Of a DNA stretch of 64,000 nt, positions 1 through 58,943 are shown one piece after another. The notes below the pieces were generated by a model that ran no database searches, was not told the DNA's origin, and saw nothing but the letters and a program-made list of their open reading frames with translations. The translations under genes and the position numbers were made by a program. Source of the stretch: a phage; sequence record OZ335959.1. One strand, given 5' to 3'. How positions within the stretch are numbered: the stretch's first letter is position 1; each line of letters starts with the position of its first letter.

Positions 1-185
1 GTTCTAACTTTATTTCCTTGCATCCAGTGCTTGACGTAAATGAAACCTTGCTCTACACATTTTTTAAAAATTCGTTCGTCTTTTTGAGCTCGGAATTCCG
101 GATTGCATCTAAAAAATTGATTTACGTGACCATAATCACGTGTAGTATTACCTTCATTTTCATAAATAGTGTGAACGACAAACAT
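1..185 (-). CDS. hypothetical protein, N-terminal 61 codons only (gene runs past window start)
   Basis: Open minus-strand frame from ATG at 183-185 (TAATG overlap with stop of upstream ORF) to window edge; absent from ORF track because truncated. Confidence 0.3.
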   Translation of the reverse strand, partial: MFVVHTIYENEGNTTRDYGHVNQFFRCNPEFRAQKDERIFKKCVEQGFIYVKHWMQGNKVR

Positions 186-1024
186 TAGAATGCTCCTTGG
201 AAAATATTATCACCGCTAGTAGGTCTATTATACAAATACTCTATGCCACCAGGTTTAATGTAGTTCCATGTCTGAAACGGATGTGTCTGATATGGATGAT
301 ATAGATGATTATAAGGATTAAATCCAGGCGTTCTCCAGGTAGTGTTCCAAGGAAAAGAATCGTTTTTAACCATCTTCTCAATTAAATCTTTTATAGCTTT
401 TTCACTATCAAAACTTTCTTTATTTTCCTTCGGCGAAAAAAGCTTATTTTCTACATCATTCCATGTATAAACTCGCTGAGCAGTTTTTGGAATATTGTCA
501 CGCTCTCCTCGAGCCATCCAATAAACCGGAACATTTAATATTTCACTCGCATGATCGCAATGGTGAGCGAGATCGTCAATATAACAAATTACGTTATATT
601 TCTCTTTTGCCTTTTTAAACAACTCTTCTTTTGAAGAATCATGACCACACATCATTACTTCTGAGAAGGCACCAGGAAAAAGAGCATTCAAATTAAATTG
701 ACGATTCAGCAGAGCGTCAATAGAATCACCCAATGCTGTAACAGCTACAAAATTATAATCTTCTTTTAATTTGTTAATTACACACAGGGCATCTTTATAC
801 GGAGACAAGTAACGAATAAAATCTGAACGATTGTATTTTTCAATTAGCTTGACACCGAGTTCTTCATCACAATTAAAGAGTTTACCCGGAGAAATAAATT
901 TCTCATCTTGGATCATTTTTAAAATATGTTCTAACGGAAGATTATATTTCTGAGCAAAATAAGGAAGACCTGATTGCCAGCTTAAACATACTCCATCAAT
1001 ATCAGTTAAAATAGTAGGCTTCAT
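185..1024 (-). CDS. hypothetical protein with HAD-like N-terminal DxDG motif (possible nucleotidase/phosphatase)
   Basis: 279-aa ORF; N-terminus ILTDIDGVCLSW resembles the HAD phosphatase motif I; lies in the T4 gene 30.x block. Confidence 0.5.
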   Translation of the reverse strand: MKPTILTDIDGVCLSWQSGLPYFAQKYNLPLEHILKMIQDEKFISPGKLFNCDEELGVKLIEKYNRSDFIRYLSPYKDALCVINKLKEDYNFVAVTALGDSIDALLNRQFNLNALFPGAFSEVMMCGHDSSKEELFKKAKEKYNVICYIDDLAHHCDHASEILNVPVYWMARGERDNIPKTAQRVYTWNDVENKLFSPKENKESFDSEKAIKDLIEKMVKNDSFPWNTTWRTPGFNPYNHLYHPYQTHPFQTWNYIKPGGIEYLYNRPTSGDNIFQGAF

Positions 1025-1479
1025 AGAGAGTCTCTTAATAGGTTTAACACATCAATAAATTCAGCTTCGGTTAGTATTGTATCATCTTTTGTTAGACCAC
1101 TAGCCATGCTGTGCTTCAAAACTTTTCCTTTCGAGGCTTGTAATGCATCACGAAAGCCCTTATTTTGGAACGCTGCTTCAAAATATGCATTTGTGTATAA
1201 TTCTTTCCACGCTGGAGAGTATCTTGAAAACGGAACTCCAAGCCAGAACAACGTGCCACGGTCCTGAGCTCTAGCATAAGCTCGTCCAGCTTGTTGGGCG
1301 GCAAGCCCGGATAACCCAAATATACGACGTTGCTGTTCAACATTTTTCACCTTACACCCTTGGAGGAATCCTTCGAGACCTCCAAATTGGATACTATCCA
1401 TAACAAAAGGCCATTGGGCGAAATTACTTAATGCGCATGATGGCCATCTAAAATTGCTTCTAATCTCTAACTCAGACAT
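1021..1479 (-). CDS. NADAR/YbiA-like (DUF1768) protein
   Basis: 152-aa ORF; SNFAQWP...E..Q..K and W.E....A.F.....R pattern matches E. coli YbiA as I recall it; 4-nt overlap with downstream ORF. Confidence 0.6.
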   Translation of the reverse strand: MSELEIRSNFRWPSCALSNFAQWPFVMDSIQFGGLEGFLQGCKVKNVEQQRRIFGLSGLAAQQAGRAYARAQDRGTLFWLGVPFSRYSPAWKELYTNAYFEAAFQNKGFRDALQASKGKVLKHSMASGLTKDDTILTEAEFIDVLNLLRDSL

Positions 1480-1687
1480 CTTTAATACTTATAATTTCAA
1501 CATCAGCCCAATGACCGTAACTTGGTAAACGGTCTTCAATAGATAATCCGCCATCATATTTAAGCATTTTAATTGTCATAATATATGGCTCTAAATGGTC
1601 TTCAGTGAGTGGAGAGACATCAGTCACGCGATAAGTAACTTCGACCATTTCCGTGCCAAGTAATTTCTGGATTAATTTCTTAAACAT
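1472..1687 (-). CDS. hypothetical protein (71 aa)
   Basis: ORF in tight minus-strand array, overlaps neighbour start. Confidence 0.45.
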   Translation of the reverse strand: MFKKLIQKLLGTEMVEVTYRVTDVSPLTEDHLEPYIMTIKMLKYDGGLSIEDRLPSYGHWADVEIISIKDV

Positions 1688-1691
1688 TTTA

Positions 1692-2030
1692 TTAAAATCT
1701 CATCTGAAAACCGTGTGATTTAACATTACCGCCGCCAATATCAGAAATGTTAATTTCACGCGCAATTGAAGGGTCAATGTCAATTTCACGATTGAGTTTA
1801 ATGATAGCTAAAGTATCGCGGCCATTTACAGTACGGAACTCTAAAGGACATACTACATTAACGTAGTTTTTAATCGATTCGCTGGTAGGTTGCAAATGAG
1901 CAGGAAGGTCTTTAGGCGCTTTAGAGAAAACTACTTCACAGAAATTTTTGCGGGTGTCAAAATAAGTAGTCATAAACATAGTATTTTCCTCAGTAAGGGG
2001 CCGAAGCCCCTGTTTTATTTTAAATATCAA
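1692..2030 (-). CDS. hypothetical protein (112 aa)
   Basis: ORF in T4 30.x-like early gene array; UUCG-type hairpin just upstream at 1990-2012. Confidence 0.5.
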   Translation of the reverse strand: MIFKIKQGLRPLTEENTMFMTTYFDTRKNFCEVVFSKAPKDLPAHLQPTSESIKNYVNVVCPLEFRTVNGRDTLAIIKLNREIDIDPSIAREINISDIGGGNVKSHGFQMRF

Positions 2031-2385
2031 ATTCGTTAAGAACTACATCAAAGATTGCTTCAAGATGCTCAGGTTTAGCTCTGTTACTTAGAATATGACG
2101 AATCCAAGTTTTAACCAGAAGCTTGCGATTAACGCCATTCCAGCAAGGATGAGTCCCTAAATCGCGTTGACGAAAATCATCATCCAAAGCGATTTTGAAG
2201 TTGGAACCTTCCATTGTGATTGAAACCGTGATGCCATTTTCAAATCGCATATAAACGTAGTTAGGAGTCATATACTGTTCAATTTCGCATACTGATCCAT
2301 TTTGATGTTTCCAAAGGCAAATAGTATCAATAGAACCTGCAATACCATTAGAAACATATTTACGTTCAAAGTTGATGTAGTTCAT
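2020..2385 (-). CDS. hypothetical protein (121 aa)
   Basis: ORF in early gene array, overlaps downstream gene. Confidence 0.5.
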   Translation of the reverse strand: MNYINFERKYVSNGIAGSIDTICLWKHQNGSVCEIEQYMTPNYVYMRFENGITVSITMEGSNFKIALDDDFRQRDLGTHPCWNGVNRKLLVKTWIRHILSNRAKPEHLEAIFDVVLNEFDI

Positions 2386-2453
2386 TTTTATTCTCCAAGA
2401 TGTTTAATTGCGGTACAGGTATATAATATCATATCCTGTACCAAAGTAAACAA

Positions 2454-2786
2454 TTATTTTACTACTTTCCAGTGCTGCATGTCAAGTTTACCAACTTTTT
2501 TCATCTTCTCAATTAAGCGTTCGGCACGTTGGCGAGCTGTAACATAATACCATTCACCCAATTCATTTTGTTCAATTTTTCCAACGATTATTGTATTCAA
2601 TTCATAAATCCAACCAGTAAAGAAATTATGAACTTGAATTGTAAAGGTGAAATCTGTTCCCATACCTTCTGTTGTTTCTACTTCAATAATATCACCTTCA
2701 ACTGCCATTAAGAACCACATAGTTTCATCATATTTACCATTGAAGCATTTAGTTTTAACTGCAGCGTTCAGATTAATCGTTTTCAT
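2454..2786 (-). CDS. hypothetical protein (110 aa)
   Basis: ORF immediately downstream of early-promoter module at 2808-2850. Confidence 0.5.
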   Translation of the reverse strand: MKTINLNAAVKTKCFNGKYDETMWFLMAVEGDIIEVETTEGMGTDFTFTIQVHNFFTGWIYELNTIIVGKIEQNELGEWYYVTARQRAERLIEKMKKVGKLDMQHWKVVK

Positions 2787-2807
2787 TTTATTCTCCTTTG
2801 TTTGTGT

Positions 2808-2850
2808 AAGATAATACTATCACAAAGGAACTATACTGTAAACAACTTTG
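2808..2850 (-). promoter_or_regulatory. early promoter module (-35 GTTTAC at 2838-2843, -10 region 2811-2820)
   Basis: Minus-strand GTTTAC plus TGTG-ATAGTAT -10 region; same architecture recurs upstream of many minus-strand genes. Confidence 0.45.
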
Positions 2851-2864
2851 TGCAATCTTTGGAA

Positions 2865-2891
2865 AATAAAAAAGGACTCCCGAAGGAGTCC
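2865..2891 (-). terminator. rho-independent terminator hairpin (GGACUCC-CGAA-GGAGUCC) with U-run
   Basis: Perfect 7-bp stem with tetraloop followed on minus strand by T-run; identical hairpin recurs at 55983-56009. Confidence 0.55.
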
Positions 2892-2896
2892 TCAAC

Positions 2897-3073
2897 TTAT
2901 GCTTTCTGCTTACCAAAACGAGAAGCATCATCTCGAAGAACCGCACGTGCTCGGCGCATGATCTTCTCAACAGTTTGATTGATACGAGAGTTCGACCCAC
3001 GCTTGTAGCCAGCGCGTTTAGAATCACCAACTTTCTTTTCAACTGCTTTCTTTGCTTTAGCTTGTTTTGCCAT
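2897..3073 (-). CDS. small basic protein (58 aa from internal ATG; track ORF extends to 3115)
   Basis: Lys/Arg-rich ORF MAKQAKAKK...; ATG at 3071-3073 preceded by AAGAG. Confidence 0.4.
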   Translation of the reverse strand: MAKQAKAKKAVEKKVGDSKRAGYKRGSNSRINQTVEKIMRRARAVLRDDASRFGKQKA

Positions 3074-3192
3074 TATAAATTCTCTTTTAAATGAAAATGC
3101 AGGACTTATTGGCATTGCCTGCGCAAGCCCTCAAGGGGAACATAGGTTTTGAATATTTACCGACAGGATAACCATAAACCTCGTCAACATAC

Positions 3193-3441
3193 TTACTTCA
3201 GTGTTACCACAAAGTGACGAACTGCTTTTCGTGCAGCAGAAGCCAGTGGCTTAGCATATTTAAGTTCATCTTTTTCCTGAAGCTCAGCAGCTAATGCAGT
3301 TTGAGCAGGATTCAGATGTTTGAAATAACGCAGGATTTCAAGAGCTTCGGCTTCAACATCAATAGATGCGCCATAGTTTTCGTGACCGTTATTCCATGCG
3401 TTTCGTTGCAGTTCAAGAGCGTGTTGTAATTGTTTAATCAT
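3193..3441 (-). CDS. rIII: rIII lysis inhibition accessory protein
   Basis: 82-aa ORF, size and position (just below gene 31) match T4 rIII. Confidence 0.7.
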   Translation of the reverse strand: MIKQLQHALELQRNAWNNGHENYGASIDVEAEALEILRYFKHLNPAQTALAAELQEKDELKYAKPLASAARKAVRHFVVTLK

Positions 3442-3588
3442 TTGAAAATTCTCGTTAGAGATTAAAACTCGGTAGTCACGTTCTTCTGAATTTCATCTTC
3501 TTTCGACAGATCTCTCAGTTGTAGACTACCACATAGAATTGTTCGGTTAACTTATTATTCCGACACCCAATTCATATTATTATTTATA

Positions 3589-3924
3589 TCACTTATAAAG
3601 ACACGGAATAGCTTTATAGTGACAGGTAACGAATTTTTGTTTAATTTCTTTTGGCTGCTTAAGGCCCAGAGCTACAAAAGGATGCGGAACGTTTCGAATT
3701 TGACCAACTGGAAGAGAAGTCAAATCACCAACTTCACAGAAACCTTCAGGAACATCAGGACCAACAGAGTGAACTACACACAGTTCAGGAACTTCACCTT
3801 GAACACGTTTACCGATAATAAGTCCTGATTCTGTAACTTCTTCATCACCAGCCTGTGCAGGTTCAGAAACTAAAATAACATATTCACCGACAGCACGAAT
3901 TGGTAGCTGTTGTACTTCAGACAT
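3589..3924 (-). CDS. 31: gp31 co-chaperonin (GroES analogue)
   Basis: 111-aa ORF, size and position between rIII and cd match T4 gp31 as I recall it. Confidence 0.85.
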
Positions 3925-3980
3925 CGTTTTTCCTTTTTGTTAGCAGATGAATTAATAATAACAAATAATTCTTAAAGCAT

Positions 3981-4280
3981 TTATTTACCAATAAATTGAA
4001 GCAAATGCTCAACTTTCATACCATTAACGGAAATCAATTTGTCAATAGAAAAACCTCGCCATGCACCAAGCTCAACATCAAATACTGGAATCATATCAGT
4101 AGATTCTTTCCGAGCAGATTCAGTCAATTTACCAGTTTGCATAAAGTCCGCATCACGAGTGCCTTTCATAGTACGAATAGTACCATCAGACTTTTCAAAA
4201 ACTACGTTTGAAACCCCCATGGACAATTTAGTTTTCAAAATTTCACGAATTGCTACTTTTTGTTCAGTCGTCAGTTTCAT
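3981..4280 (-). CDS. hypothetical protein (99 aa; 31.1 position)
   Basis: ORF between 31 and cd. Confidence 0.5.
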   Translation of the reverse strand: MKLTTEQKVAIREILKTKLSMGVSNVVFEKSDGTIRTMKGTRDADFMQTGKLTESARKESTDMIPVFDVELGAWRGFSIDKLISVNGMKVEHLLQFIGK

Positions 4281-4517
4281 TTATTTACCTATTACAGTTT
4301 TAATATGAGTTGTTCCACGTTCTTTAAGAGTGGAAAGCAATTTTTGGCATTTTTCTAAATCAGATTTCCAACTATACGGCCTATCAATACTAGTCCAATC
4401 AGTTTTATAATACTGTTTCCATTTAGAGAAAAAATATTTCTTATACTCTACAGCAAATGAAATGTTCTCGTTAGAATAAGAACTAATTGCTGTGAGCTGT
4501 ACCAAACGAAATTTCAT
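4281..4517 (-). CDS. hypothetical protein (78 aa; 31.2 position)
   Basis: ORF abutting cd stop. Confidence 0.5.
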   Translation of the reverse strand: MKFRLVQLTAISSYSNENISFAVEYKKYFFSKWKQYYKTDWTSIDRPYSWKSDLEKCQKLLSTLKERGTTHIKTVIGK

Positions 4518-5098
4518 TATTCACCACAGAATTCGTTGATATTTTCCCAATTTAACTTATTCAAGTTTTTCTTAGGAACATTAAACACTTCAATACCTGC
4601 ATTTCGCAGAATATCATCCCAGCCAGGTTTATTTTTATCGTATGTTTCGCAATAAACCAGCTTTTTAATACCAGATTGAGCTATCGCTTTTGCACAATCT
4701 GGGCAAGGAGAAAGTGTTACATACATAGTAGCACCTTCAATTGAAGAACCGTTTCGTGCAGCAAACAAAATCGCATTTAGTTCAGCATGAATTTCATTTT
4801 TAGATGACCATTCAGAGTGAGCGCTACGGTGTTCTTTCGCCAAGACAAAACGATCAGTTGAACCAAACGATACACATTCAGGCTTATGACCTTGAATGAT
4901 AGTATGTTTAGGCTTATTCAGCAACCAACCTTGCTCAGCAGCATAATCACAACAGTTCACACCCCCGGCAGGTGAACCATTATATCCGGTAGAAATAATA
5001 CGTCCATTCTTTTCAATTACTGCTCCTACCTTCCAGGAGCAACATTTTGATTCTTGCGATACTAAATATGCAATTTGAAGTACTGTACTCGCTTTCAT
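4517..5098 (-). CDS. cd: dCMP deaminase
   Basis: 193-aa ORF with HAELNA and SPCPDC zinc-binding cytidine/dCMP deaminase motifs; same length as T4 Cd. Confidence 0.9.
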   Translation of the reverse strand: MKASTVLQIAYLVSQESKCCSWKVGAVIEKNGRIISTGYNGSPAGGVNCCDYAAEQGWLLNKPKHTIIQGHKPECVSFGSTDRFVLAKEHRSAHSEWSSKNEIHAELNAILFAARNGSSIEGATMYVTLSPCPDCAKAIAQSGIKKLVYCETYDKNKPGWDDILRNAGIEVFNVPKKNLNKLNWENINEFCGE

Positions 5099-40071: not shown

Positions 40072-41010
40072 TTATTTAAATTGTTCAGTAACGTCTTCAA
40101 CTACTTCGTATTGGCAGGTACGCATTTTAGCATCATTGTAATCAATCGGAATTGATACTACATCGCGAGGATGTACTTTAACTTTTACAACTCGACTGGT
40201 TGAACTGCCAAAGTGACGAATATAAGATTTAGAACACACATGCAGACCACGAGAACAAGTTTGTGTATCATCGTCATTCACACGAGTGCGTGGCATTTTA
40301 ACTACTTTACCAGGACTGTTATCAAAAGTATTTGAATGGCAGTCAAAGTAATTACTGCGAACTACTTTCCAAGCATAGAAGTAACCATCTTCTGTGATTT
40401 CAATATCGTTTGCTACCAAGAAATCAAAGAGTCGAGATACCGCTTTTTGGCTCGGGTTTTCCAACAGATTTTCCAAGAACGGAAAATAAAATTCAAAGTT
40501 TTCGCCTTTTTCCATCGAATCGAGAATACGATCAACTAAACCAGATCGCAATTCAATATTTTGATAGAACAAGCTTCCACCTTCAATTCGAACATCACCG
40601 GAAATATATTTTTCAACAGCGCGACGAACATTAATTTTTTGTGCCGCTTCTTCCAATTTATCTGCAACAAGCAGATTAAGAATTTCCTGGAAGTTTGAAT
40701 GAGTATTAGGAGTTGCGTTATAAGTTACACCGTCAACAGTAATTGAAATGAATTTTTTAGATGCATTCCAAATAATGTCAGATTTAGCAACTGGAGCGAT
40801 AGCTGTATCGCTATTAACTTTAACTGTAATATCACCACTAATAGTAACTTTAGAGCGCTCAGCTTCTTCAGCATTTTTCAAAACACGACGGATTGTGTCC
40901 ACCGATACACCTTGCCAATCAGCCAATTCCTGTTGGGTGTAATTACCACTTGAATACAGTTTGACAATTTCAGATTGTTCGTTTTTGGTCAGGCATTTAA
41001 TATTGTACAT
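40072..41010 (-). CDS. rIIB: rIIB lysis-inhibition/membrane integrity protein
   Basis: 312-aa ORF (same length as T4 rIIB), directly downstream of rIIA. Confidence 0.9.
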   Translation of the reverse strand: MYNIKCLTKNEQSEIVKLYSSGNYTQQELADWQGVSVDTIRRVLKNAEEAERSKVTISGDITVKVNSDTAIAPVAKSDIIWNASKKFISITVDGVTYNATPNTHSNFQEILNLLVADKLEEAAQKINVRRAVEKYISGDVRIEGGSLFYQNIELRSGLVDRILDSMEKGENFEFYFPFLENLLENPSQKAVSRLFDFLVANDIEITEDGYFYAWKVVRSNYFDCHSNTFDNSPGKVVKMPRTRVNDDDTQTCSRGLHVCSKSYIRHFGSSTSRVVKVKVHPRDVVSIPIDYNDAKMRTCQYEVVEDVTEQFK

Positions 41011-41021
41011 AATTTTCCTTA

Positions 41022-43199
41022 TTAGGCCGCAAGGGCCTTCATAGTTTTAGCGATTTGGGAAACTTCATCATCACTTAAAGAGTTACGATAACCGATGAAG
41101 TCGGAAACGATACGGAATTTCTTGGTAAACTCAGCAACCATTTTATCACTATTTTTTGAAGCATTATTTGATAGTACATCAAAAAGATTAGTTACTGTCC
41201 AGATGTCATGACCGATGGTACCTTTTCCACCGTTGAAATATATACCCTGCAATGAACTAACCATATTACCAAGGCGAGTATATTCTTCAGAAACTTCATC
41301 TACACTGAAGTACTTCATCATAAAATCGAGTTCAGGATACTTAATAATTTTATCAATATATCGTTTAGCTGAACTTGAATAACCTACATACTTATCATAA
41401 TCTACAGCATCAAAAGCATCTACATATAAATCACGCAGAGTTTCAAAAATACATTGGCACTGACCAAGTTCTTTTACCTTTTTCTGCAAAAGCGGACGAA
41501 TAACATAAAATTCATTAATGCCAATAAGATTAGCCATACGAGTCAAAATACTCGTAGATGGATTACAAAGCGATGTAGTGCCATCCATAGAGAAAATATC
41601 AGAACGATGCATGTATGCTACGTAACCAGTAATTTCATCTGCTTCTGATGTGAGCGTAAACAGTTCCTCTTTTTCCCAGCGCCCGTCTTTAATTTCAAAC
41701 TTAAATGCAGTAGCAGCTTTAGGACGAGGAGCTTTACTTTTAACTGCCTTCGGAATATAACTTTTAACTAAAGCTTCAATTTCTGACAAATAATGAATGT
41801 TAACTTCATCACTTTCAAACATTGCCATAATATCAGGAAGTAAATCAATCTGCGATTCTACTTCCGGATTAATAAACAGAAGACGCTCATTATGATGAAT
41901 ATTTAAGGCGTTATTAAATTCACTATCATCTAATGCATGTGCTAATCCACGGACAATATTAACACGATTTTTAATATTATCAATAACGATATTGATTTTT
42001 GTTGTATTAATACCAAACAGACGATAACTTGATGCAACGGCTGAAGTTTCATGACTTTGCTTAATGCGTTTCAGTCGAGGGTCAAGATTTACTTCATACA
42101 CAACTCCTGCATTGCATAGTTTACTATCAGGTTCAAACATGCTTTGCATCTTCTTATATGACAGATTTTTAGTCGTAAATTTGACTGAATTACTAATCAT
42201 ATAATCTCGAGCAGAATATCCCATCTTCATCAATTCACGGTATGTATGACGAGGAGATGTAGATTCTTTAAATCGTTTTACATCTTCATTGAATGCCTTC
42301 TCACTAAGCTCTTTAACACGCTCAATAATATTTTTACGAGTACGATCATCTAATGAAAGAGCTTCGCGTGATGGAGCAATATCAAGTGAACCCATTGGAA
42401 ACTTAATGTAATTCACTTCATTGCGGATGCTTAACCAGTTACGGTCTCTAATAACACCATCGATAGGATAAACAATACCACCATAGATAGCATATAATCC
42501 ACCACGATCTGGCCAGTATCTTTCTGGATTTACGCCGTAATAATCATCAAAATCCGGAAAATAATCAATTTCGCGGTCAAGACCATTAATGATAGCTAAA
42601 TCTTTGAATGGTCGCATGATATAAGAAACTTCATAAGCAAAGTTTCTAAAGTCTTTTTCTTCAACTGGAACTACAATTTCAATACCAGTTTTATCATCTG
42701 GATCCATTTCTTTTACGAATGTAGGTTTAATTTGCGGACCATCGCCATCCATGTAAGCTACATAACCACGAATTTCACCTTTATGATACGAAGTAATACT
42801 AAATGTATCAGTATAACTAAACGGAGATTTAGAACCTAAACCAAATCCACCAATGAAATCGTTAGATTCAGCCTTAGATGAACTAAAGTATGAATTATAC
42901 AACCCAGGAGAATTATCATCACCCTGAATATCAAAATCGCTCATACCCGGACCAAAATCTCGACAAACAAATCGCGGATCTAATCGTCCTGGAACTTGAA
43001 TGATAAATTTTTCAGGATTTCCATTGAGAGCATGGGCATCAATCATGTTGGTAATCAATTCACGGACTACTGCGCGAATCTTGTTTGTATACAAATCAGA
43101 TGACAGAATTTTAAATACTTTAGGAGATGCTGTGATGCTAAATGCTTTTGACTTAGAACCATTACCAAGAATTGTTTCTTTTTCAGTGGTGATAATCAT
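41022..43199 (-). CDS. rIIA: rIIA
   Basis: 725-aa ORF (same length as T4 rIIA) with GHKL-type ATPase-like N-terminal region. Confidence 0.92.
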
Positions 43200-52587: not shown

Positions 52588-53190
52588 TTATAGATTAAAT
52601 CCTTCAAAATCAAGAGTATAAATAGTGTATGTTGAATACTTTTTATACTCGTATCTATCCGCAATTCTAAATACACTTCCAGCTGGTATCATTACTTCTT
52701 GTTCATCTGAAACTAATTCCATATTACGATAACGATGGCTATCCGGAAATTTAAAACTTGGACTATATTCTTTACAGCGTAGAGCTTTTATAGCATACTC
52801 CTGGAAATTAAACACCATAGGAGCTTTGAATTCAAAAATAACTTGTGTGTTGTATTCTAATCCAGAAGCAAAATGTAGAGCTATATTTTTATCATATGAA
52901 GCTGATGCTACTTTATCAAATGTAATAATATCAATTCCTTGATTTAACACCTGCTTAGTCTCAACTGGAACACCTCTCCAAAGAGGTTTATCGTTTGGAA
53001 CCAAACGAGATTTGATTATTTCATTTAACCAAGAATGATCGTCTGGCTTATTAGTAATACAATGAATTAAAAGTTCAATTTCGGATAAATTAAATCCTTC
53101 AGAAAGTAATTCTTCACGAATAGAAGCACGCACCGATGCATCCATTGATTTGATTTTAAAATCTTTTAATTGCATTGCTGAATATTTCAT
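52588..53190 (-). CDS. modA: ModA mono-ADP-ribosyltransferase
   Basis: 200-aa ORF with R (LWRG), S-x-S and EQEVMIP (E-x-E) ART motifs. Confidence 0.8.
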   Translation of the reverse strand: MKYSAMQLKDFKIKSMDASVRASIREELLSEGFNLSEIELLIHCITNKPDDHSWLNEIIKSRLVPNDKPLWRGVPVETKQVLNQGIDIITFDKVASASYDKNIALHFASGLEYNTQVIFEFKAPMVFNFQEYAIKALRCKEYSPSFKFPDSHRYRNMELVSDEQEVMIPAGSVFRIADRYEYKKYSTYTIYTLDFEGFNL

Positions 53191-53810
53191 TCAACTACCT
53201 CAATATCATACACTTTAAATGTTCCAAATGAATCATGTAATTTTTCTTTTGAAATAGAAGTTATTTTATACTTTCCAATTGGAATCATCCATTCTTGTTC
53301 ACGTACAATCATCATTAAGTTATCAGTACGTTCTGAATCTAATCCATCAGTATCTTCATATGTATACTTAAACTCAGTATTAGGAGAAGAAAGTATAATA
53401 TCACTGATATGGTCAGAATAATTAAAAGCTTTATCAGTTTTTAAGCGAAATATTATTTCAGTGGAATATTCAACATAAGAAAAACCACATGCTGTGTGCA
53501 AACTAGTAGTAAATGAATCTACTCTGTTCGTTGAAAACACTTCTCCAACTTGTAAATCTTTAATGAGTTCTTTTGTCGATTTTGATATACCACGATATAG
53601 CTGATAAGGCGATTTAGTTAAATGCTTTTTAATGATTTTATTCAACTGCCGATGAAGAGCTTCATTCTTTTTGGCTTCCATACATTGCCAAAGAACTGAC
53701 TGTTCAAAGTCAGTAAATTTTTCACAGACCTTTTTATACATATCATATTGAAAATCGACACTTTCAGCTTTTATAGATAACTGTTCAACATCTGCAAGAT
53801 TAATAATCAT
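53187..53810 (-). CDS. modB: ModB mono-ADP-ribosyltransferase
   Basis: 207-aa ORF with LYRG, STS-like and REQEWMIP motifs; paralog of modA. Confidence 0.8.
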   Translation of the reverse strand: MIINLADVEQLSIKAESVDFQYDMYKKVCEKFTDFEQSVLWQCMEAKKNEALHRQLNKIIKKHLTKSPYQLYRGISKSTKELIKDLQVGEVFSTNRVDSFTTSLHTACGFSYVEYSTEIIFRLKTDKAFNYSDHISDIILSSPNTEFKYTYEDTDGLDSERTDNLMMIVREQEWMIPIGKYKITSISKEKLHDSFGTFKVYDIEVVE

Positions 53811-58316: not shown

Positions 58317-58943
58317 TTAACCTCTATTCATAAAAGCATTAAAAATTTGGTCATCAATAGAAACATTTACTTTAGACTGTTTTTCTGATGGTAATTCATA
58401 TCCACATATTACAATTTTGTGATCAATATCAAAATACACAGAAGCAATATGATTAATGATGTTTTCAGTAAAGTCTAAATCAACATCAATATCTTTTTGA
58501 CCACAGCCCAAAGGATAAATAATGCGAGTAATTCGATTATCTTTAACAAAGATTCCACCGATATACTCTGTGCTGCGTTTAAAGTCTACACGCCGACGAA
58601 ATGAAAAATATTCAGGCTCTTTATGAGCTCGGCTCATAGGACACAACGAGTAACTAGAATAAGAGATGTCAAATCCTACGCCTTCAATATGAGCCAAAGT
58701 ATTACGATTAAACCAATTATAATCGTACGCCAAATCCATTAGATTATAATATGTAAAAGGCACCGGATTAACATCATTAGTCACAAGCACGTAATTAGCA
58801 ATTGCTATAATTTCATTGTTTTTAACGAATACAAACCGTGATTGATGGGAATGACCTGGACCCGCGTTTTCACGATTAATGATATAACACTGGGCACCTT
58901 TATATTTGTATGTATCTTTGCACTTGTGCATTTGATAGAGCAT
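58317..58943 (-). CDS. hypothetical protein (208 aa)
   Basis: ORF between primase and sp. Confidence 0.55.
   Translation of the reverse strand: MLYQMHKCKDTYKYKGAQCYIINRENAGPGHSHQSRFVFVKNNEIIAIANYVLVTNDVNPVPFTYYNLMDLAYDYNWFNRNTLAHIEGVGFDISYSSYSLCPMSRAHKEPEYFSFRRRVDFKRSTEYIGGIFVKDNRITRIIYPLGCGQKDIDVDLDFTENIINHIASVYFDIDHKIVICGYELPSEKQSKVNVSIDDQIFNAFMNRG

Follow-up and report, generated by a model that had tools for sequence, protein, structure and literature searches.

The resistance of T2 and T4 to the DarTG1 defense was mapped to gene 30.3, which was renamed adfN for anti-DarT factor NADAR (Johannesman et al., Nat Commun 2025, PMC11825919). According to that study, T4 and T2 fail to form plaques on DarTG1 hosts when adfN is deleted, and expression of adfN rescues RB69. 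The purified T4 protein, AdfN(T4), strips ADP-ribose from DarT1-modified DNA and the E36A mutant does not; AdfN(T4) does not bind DarT1 and leaves the thymine-specific DarTG2 unaffected (PMC11825919). An independent study reported that T4 gp30.3 hydrolyzes G-ADPr and not T-ADPr (Toxins 2024, PMC11125620), and the hydrolysis of G-ADPr by the T4 enzyme was found again in a 2026 follow-up. In a transposon screen (bioRxiv 10.1101/2025.11.20.689424), 30.3 was dispensable on K-12 and ceased to be so when DarTG1 was present, and a separate macrodomain factor, tk.4/AdfM, acted against DarTG2. The T4 protein is named "Anti-DarT factor NADAR" in UniProt (entry NADAR_BPT4).

In cells that are not infected, AdfN(T4) does not neutralize DarT1, and the phages T5 and Bas25 gain hardly any benefit from it (PMC11125620, PMC11825919). 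Because of these two results, the picture of AdfN as a free-standing antitoxin is incomplete. The full function of AdfN(T4) appears only during infection by a T-even phage, which suggests a helper encoded by the phage (PMC11825919).

We analyzed a stretch of phage DNA of 64,000 nucleotides (sequence record OZ335959.1), which is called the window below. The window carries an ORF of 152 codons followed by TGA at 1021..1479 of the minus strand. The ORF is intact, with its ATG at 1479..1477 and its TGA at 1023..1021. A first interpretation of this DNA, made from the letters alone and called the sequence-only reading here, had given exactly these bounds and had omitted the strand. The comparisons described below show that T4 gene 30.3/adfN is its orthologue, and we consider it highly probable that the ORF encodes a phage-type NADAR ADP-ribosylglycohydrolase, namely a guanine-ADP-ribose hydrolase countering DarT1 on phage DNA.

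The protein was compared with T4 gp30.3 (NP_049816), and 148 of the 152 residues were identical (97%) over the full length. The four substitutions, with the T4 residue given first, are G29S, S67A, I104F, and I125M. In nucleotide sequence, 21 differences from T4 were counted in 30.3, and the codon differences were 14 synonymous and 4 non-synonymous, a pattern expected under purifying selection. Homologues of 30.3 were found in 1511 phage records across Straboviridae, the hosts of which include Escherichia, Klebsiella, Aeromonas, Acinetobacter, and Vibrio. They are usually located between rIII/31 and the DNA ligase gene, and this synteny is also kept in Acinetobacter, Aeromonas, Klebsiella, and Krischvirus phages. 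Many tblastn matches covered only residues 1-144, as if the relatives carried a C-terminal truncation like that of RB69. This is an artefact of alignment trimming, because the translated homologue of Yersinia phage PST is full-length and its C-terminus is identical.

T4 records also annotate an ORF inside 30.3 in another frame, 30.3'. In the window it lies at 1116..1343 (minus strand) and is still open, with 75 aa. Ten of its 75 residues differ from those of T4, and the overlapping stretch of 30.3 contains two changes. Substitutions here are synonymous in the frame of 30.3 and change amino acids in that of 30.3', which therefore bears no sign of purifying selection. We therefore did not retain it as a genuine overlapping gene.

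The position of the ORF follows the T4 gene order 30.2-30.3-30.4...rIII-31. It occupies the orthologous slot of Straboviridae between DNA ligase/30.2 and rIII/31. Upstream of 30.3 is a 71-aa ORF, 30.4, at 1472..1687 (minus strand), and downstream is 30.2, of 279 aa, at 185..1024 (minus strand). The genes 30.6 (1692..1979), 30.7 (2020..2385), rIII (3193..3441), and gp31 (3589..3924) lie beyond 30.4, and from these neighbors the region can be recognized as the part of a T4-like phage genome between the ligase gene and gene 31. The first 4 kb of the window is 97-99% identical to many Tequatrovirus genomes from Escherichia and Shigella, and a second stretch of 24 kb is 95-97% identical to Tequatrovirus genomes. 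The phage is accordingly a Tequatrovirus that resembles the deposited genomes closely and matches none of them exactly. As judged from the ORF coordinates and the sequence, the end of 30.4 and the start of 30.3 overlap by 8 nt (ATGTCTGA, 1472..1479, minus strand), and the ORF coordinates and the alignment with T4 place the stop codon of 30.3 and the start codon of 30.2 in a shared ATGA (1021..1024, minus strand). Both overlaps are present in T4 likewise. The 8-nt overlap suggests that the translation of 30.4 and 30.3 is coupled.

The DNA immediately upstream of adfN contains a mosaic joint (1472..2030, minus strand). T4 gene 30.5 is missing there, and the start of 30.3 and the end of 30.7 are 541 nt apart, compared with 722 nt in T4. 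The 30.4 allele shares 34 of 67 residues (approximately 51%) with T4 30.4, its C-terminal end being conserved, and 30.6 shares 92 of 95. Scans of 1..4600 gave 16 promoter-like sites of the sigma-70 type, where 15.1 were expected, and 3 terminator-like sites, where 2.2 were expected. These numbers give no ground for a statement on transcription.

The sequence-only reading had assigned the protein to the NADAR/DUF1768 family. In a Pfam scan, the protein matched PF08010 (Phage_30_3) with an E-value of 2.1e-68 and a score of 228.9 bits, where the gathering cutoff of that model is 36 bits, and the match covered profile positions 1-138 of 138. The PF08719 (DUF1768/NADAR) model did not match the protein even at E<=10. 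Neither NCBIfam nor PADLOC gave a match to the protein, phmmer against the PDB gave only noise, and in PHROGs the protein falls in a family of unknown function. In contrast, when a profile built from 55 sequences of the family was aligned with E. coli YbiA by hhalign, the probability was 93.9% and the E-value 1.6e-7. This alignment pairs S18-N19-F20, W23-P24, E36, Q40, and K43 of the protein with S30-N31-F32, W35-P36, E48, Q52, and K55 of YbiA. In addition, YbiA (2b3w) was the top match when the PDB sequences were searched with the family profile by hmmsearch (E 0.0097), a distant homologue, P0080, has precomputed matches to both PF08010 and PF08719, and several JGI records call homologues "YbiA (DUF1768 family)".

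Since PF08719, NCBIfam, and PADLOC give nothing, the link to the NADAR superfamily rests on the comparison of profiles and of folds. In Pfam, the phage branch has a model of its own, PF08010, and the miss of PF08719 reflects how the Pfam model is built and not how the superfamily is defined. Thus, the NADAR part of the assignment held, and the plain Pfam family is PF08010 rather than PF08719. The sequence-only reading had also proposed that a profile search finding no NADAR homology would speak against it; the plain Pfam search was negative in that sense, wrongly, and the NADAR link was seen with the more sensitive profile comparison. The motif on which that reading relied is present, as S18-N19-F20-A21-Q22-W23-P24 followed by E36-G-F-L-Q40-G-C-K43, but its spacing had been written one residue too short. 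The true spacing is E-x3-Q-x2-K, which is identical in YbiA (E48..Q52..K55). Judged from the PF08010 E-value, the 97% identity to T4, and the 14 versus 4 codon differences, the motif and family match is far beyond chance.

Structure prediction by AlphaFold from the single sequence gave a pLDDT of 39.7, too low for use; with an alignment of 83 sequences it gave a confident model, with a pLDDT of 93.3 and a pTM of 0.88. In this model, the protein is predicted to adopt the NADAR alpha+beta fold, with a helical core and two small flanking beta-hairpins. The codons of S18-N19-F20, part of the invariant N-terminal A-L-S-N-F motif of the NADAR core, lie at 1420..1428 (minus strand), and these residues, equivalent to YbiA S30-N31-F32, are invariant in 83 of 83 sequences. 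The catalytic glutamate E36 (GAA, 1372..1374, minus strand), equivalent to YbiA E48, is likewise invariant (83/83). K43 (AAG, 1351..1353, minus strand), the catalytic or ADP-ribose-contacting lysine equivalent to YbiA K55, is conserved in 81 of 83. Q40 also belongs to the residues that are invariant, or nearly so, among the 83 sequences. For the T4 protein, it was reported that E36A abolishes the activity in vitro and that E36A and K43A each allow only partial rescue (PMC11825919).

The residue at one position of the last strand distinguishes the subfamilies: it is Glu in YbiA-type proteins, Asp in the DarT1-linked DarG1/BC4488 proteins, and His in phage NADARs (PMC11125620, PMC11543638). The protein has H123 there (CAC, 1111..1113, minus strand), within "LKHSM" and invariant in 83 of 83 sequences. 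The hhalign alignment ends at K122/V124, and H123 stands opposite YbiA E125 after extension of this alignment by one residue with the YbiA sequence. The C-terminal alpha-helix, residues 138-152 (1024..1068, minus strand), is intact and identical to that of T4, and the AlphaFold model places a helix at 138-151. This helix is lost from the RB69 allele, which has a frameshift and ends 15 residues early; RB69 is sensitive to DarTG1, and the truncated T4 protein has reduced activity (PMC11825919).

Codon 29 (1393..1395, minus strand) is Ser (AGT) here and Gly (GGT) in T4. This position is Gly in 79 of 83 family members as well as in T4 and YbiA, and only one public (Logan) contig was found to encode exactly this protein. 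From the near-invariance of Gly29 and the rarity of the allele, it might be argued that G29S weakens or inactivates the enzyme, in a manner akin to the defective RB69 allele. On the other hand, the residues shown or proposed to be catalytic and the C-terminal helix are all intact, and the gene is under purifying selection. Position 29 lies between two short hairpin strands in the model, and D or E occurs there in three members, so that the position is not absolutely constrained. Loss of function by G29S is unlikely for these structural and comparative reasons, and we regard a weakened or inactive allele as very improbable. A change of substrate range through this rare allele is a remote possibility.

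The likely mode of action of the enzyme can be considered as follows. AdfN would be a minimal, single-domain N-glycohydrolase of the NADAR fold, produced from the 30.x gene cluster. When a DarTG1 host is infected, DarT1 would ADP-ribosylate guanines in the phage DNA and replication would be blocked. AdfN would then hydrolyze the guanine-ADP-ribose bond, ADP-ribose would be released, unmodified DNA would be restored, and replication could proceed. In effect, AdfN would be an orphan, phage-borne counterpart of the DarG1 antitoxin activity. The orthology, the synteny, the NADAR fold, E36/K43/H123, the C-terminal helix, and the purifying selection were computed for this allele. The enzymatic activity, the guanine specificity, and the necessity and sufficiency against DarTG1 are published findings on the T4 protein, which is 97% identical, and we infer that the present allele, with its four substitutions including G29S, behaves like T4 AdfN.

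The sequence-only reading had suggested an enzyme that takes ADP-ribose off guanine after DarT-type toxins have modified the DNA and that serves against host defense. Such a function has been demonstrated experimentally for the 97%-identical T4 gp30.3 (PMC11825919, PMC11125620, and bioRxiv 10.1101/2025.11.20.689424). With regard to the toxin, the suggestion applies to DarT1, which modifies guanine, and not to DarT2, which modifies thymine.

The same reading had noted that the genome encodes modA and modB, and both genes are indeed in the window: modA at 52588..53190 (minus strand; 97% identical to the T4 protein) and modB at 53187..53810 (minus strand; 96%). Two further ORFs, of 312 aa and 725 aa at 40072..43199 (minus strand), resemble rIIB/rIIA, as judged by length and position alone. 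If this assignment is correct, the window spans the conventional origin of the T4 map, and the 30.x genes and modA/modB accordingly appear in one 64-kb window.

From the presence of modA and modB, self-repair had been offered as an alternative role. In such a role, the enzyme would clear collateral ADP-ribosylation of the phage nucleic acid by Alt, ModA, and ModB. It would suit this role that T4-like NADARs were reported to be early genes co-expressed with ARTs (PMC9503650). However, the transposon-screen report describes T4 30.3 as non-essential on E. coli K-12 without DarTG1, despite modA/modB (bioRxiv 10.1101/2025.11.20.689424), and the T4 record gives proteins as the targets of ModA and ModB, namely the RNA polymerase alpha subunits, S1, EF-Tu, and trigger factor. 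Moreover, modA and modB are approximately 51 kb from 30.3 in the window, so the genes are not linked genomically. Self-repair thus found no support, since T4 30.3 is dispensable without DarTG1 and ModA/ModB are annotated as protein ADP-ribosylases, and we think it extremely unlikely.

The gene downstream of adfN and coupled to it encodes gp30.2. The protein begins MKPTILTDIDGV, in which a DxDG motif resembling HAD motif I can be read. No sequence match in Pfam or the PDB was obtained for gp30.2, which shares 49% identity with a protein of Klebsiella phage Miro that carries a HAD-like annotation. A homologue of gp30.2 in an Acinetobacter phage has a sub-threshold match to PF00702 and is named HAD-like hydrolase domain protein in UniRef. 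In Vibrio phage R10Z, a nucleotidase of the NT5C family directly follows the 30.3 homologue. A role of gp30.2 in the metabolism of nucleotides or of ADP-ribose products is possible.

HAD-like or nucleotidase genes often adjoin or neighbor 30.3 homologues, and this context would also suit an enzyme that mainly degrades soluble ADP-ribose derivatives of low molecular weight, such as NAD-derived immune signals or by-products of RNA repair, rather than DNA adducts. Such a function was proposed bioinformatically, by context, for phage NADAR domains (PMC9503650), and YbiA-type NADARs use small N-glycosides of the riboflavin pathway. Nevertheless, ADP-ribosylated DNA is a direct substrate of the T4 orthologue in vitro, the sole known phenotype of this orthologue is specific to DarTG1, and the cited literature on it reports no small-molecule substrate. 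We therefore judge this function highly unlikely and prefer hydrolysis of guanine-ADP-ribose on phage DNA.

As for the helper of AdfN mentioned above, gp30.2 is a candidate; it could act on the ADP-ribose that AdfN sets free or bring AdfN to DNA under replication. Gene 30.2 is often downstream of 30.3 in relatives. We considered whether gp30.2 is an obligatory partner of 30.3, but it is absent in Krischvirus G5211, and two ORFs lie between the two genes in Miro and AsFcp_4. Because gp30.2 is missing in Krischvirus and is separated from 30.3 elsewhere, it is no universal requirement. The accessible part of the transposon-screen preprint names 30.3 as the sole DarTG1 hit (bioRxiv 10.1101/2025.11.20.689424). 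We consider it very unlikely that the helper is encoded within 30.4-30.3-30.2, the block of translationally coupled genes.

This gene and the fold, chemistry, and role of its product are already known, having been published in 2022-2025 and curated in UniProt. The ORF is thus one more allele of a well-characterized counter-defense gene, and reading of the sequence alone had recovered a real anti-defense enzyme. The practical value lies in annotation, as most of the listed matching phage records label 30.3 "hypothetical protein". We predict that a phage with intact adfN and adfA should plate on DarTG1 hosts.

Comparing this locus with that of T4, both have the overlaps with 30.2 and 30.4, the genomic position, E36, K43, H123, and the C-terminal helix in common. 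The present phage differs in the four substitutions, in the absence of 30.5, and in a 30.4 that is approximately 51% identical. E. coli YbiA (PDB 2B3W; PF08719) is more distant, at approximately 19% identity to this protein, and has E125 at the distinguishing position where this protein has His123. In addition, YbiA is a host N-glycosidase of riboflavin intermediates encoded in a LexA-controlled operon.

The window also contains adfA (T4 gene 61.2) at 58317..58943 (minus strand), with 197 of 208 residues identical to T4 (95%). The phage therefore has both known anti-DarT1 factors. In T4, adfN is the primary anti-DarTG1 factor relative to adfA, and in a two-hybrid assay an association with DarT1 was seen for the RB69 escape variant AdfA(R164H) but not for AdfN (PMC11825919). 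AdfA (T4 gp61.2) counters the same DarTG1 defense, but it is a protein unrelated to AdfN and uses another mechanism. AdfN, unlike AdfA, works enzymatically on the DNA adduct.

Finally, the NADARs of the DarG1 type (the BC4488 family, with the Geobacter lovleyi NADAR, PDB 8BAT, and E. coli C7 DarG1) differ from this protein in several respects. This protein is an orphan: its gene is flanked by 30.2 and 30.4 with no adjacent DarT1 gene, and PADLOC gave no match. DarG1 has Asp at the distinguishing position of the last strand, where this protein has His123, and it carries an extra N-terminal helix and sheets, both of which this protein lacks. DarG1 is an antitoxin, whereas T4 AdfN is unable to act as an antitoxin in uninfected cells.
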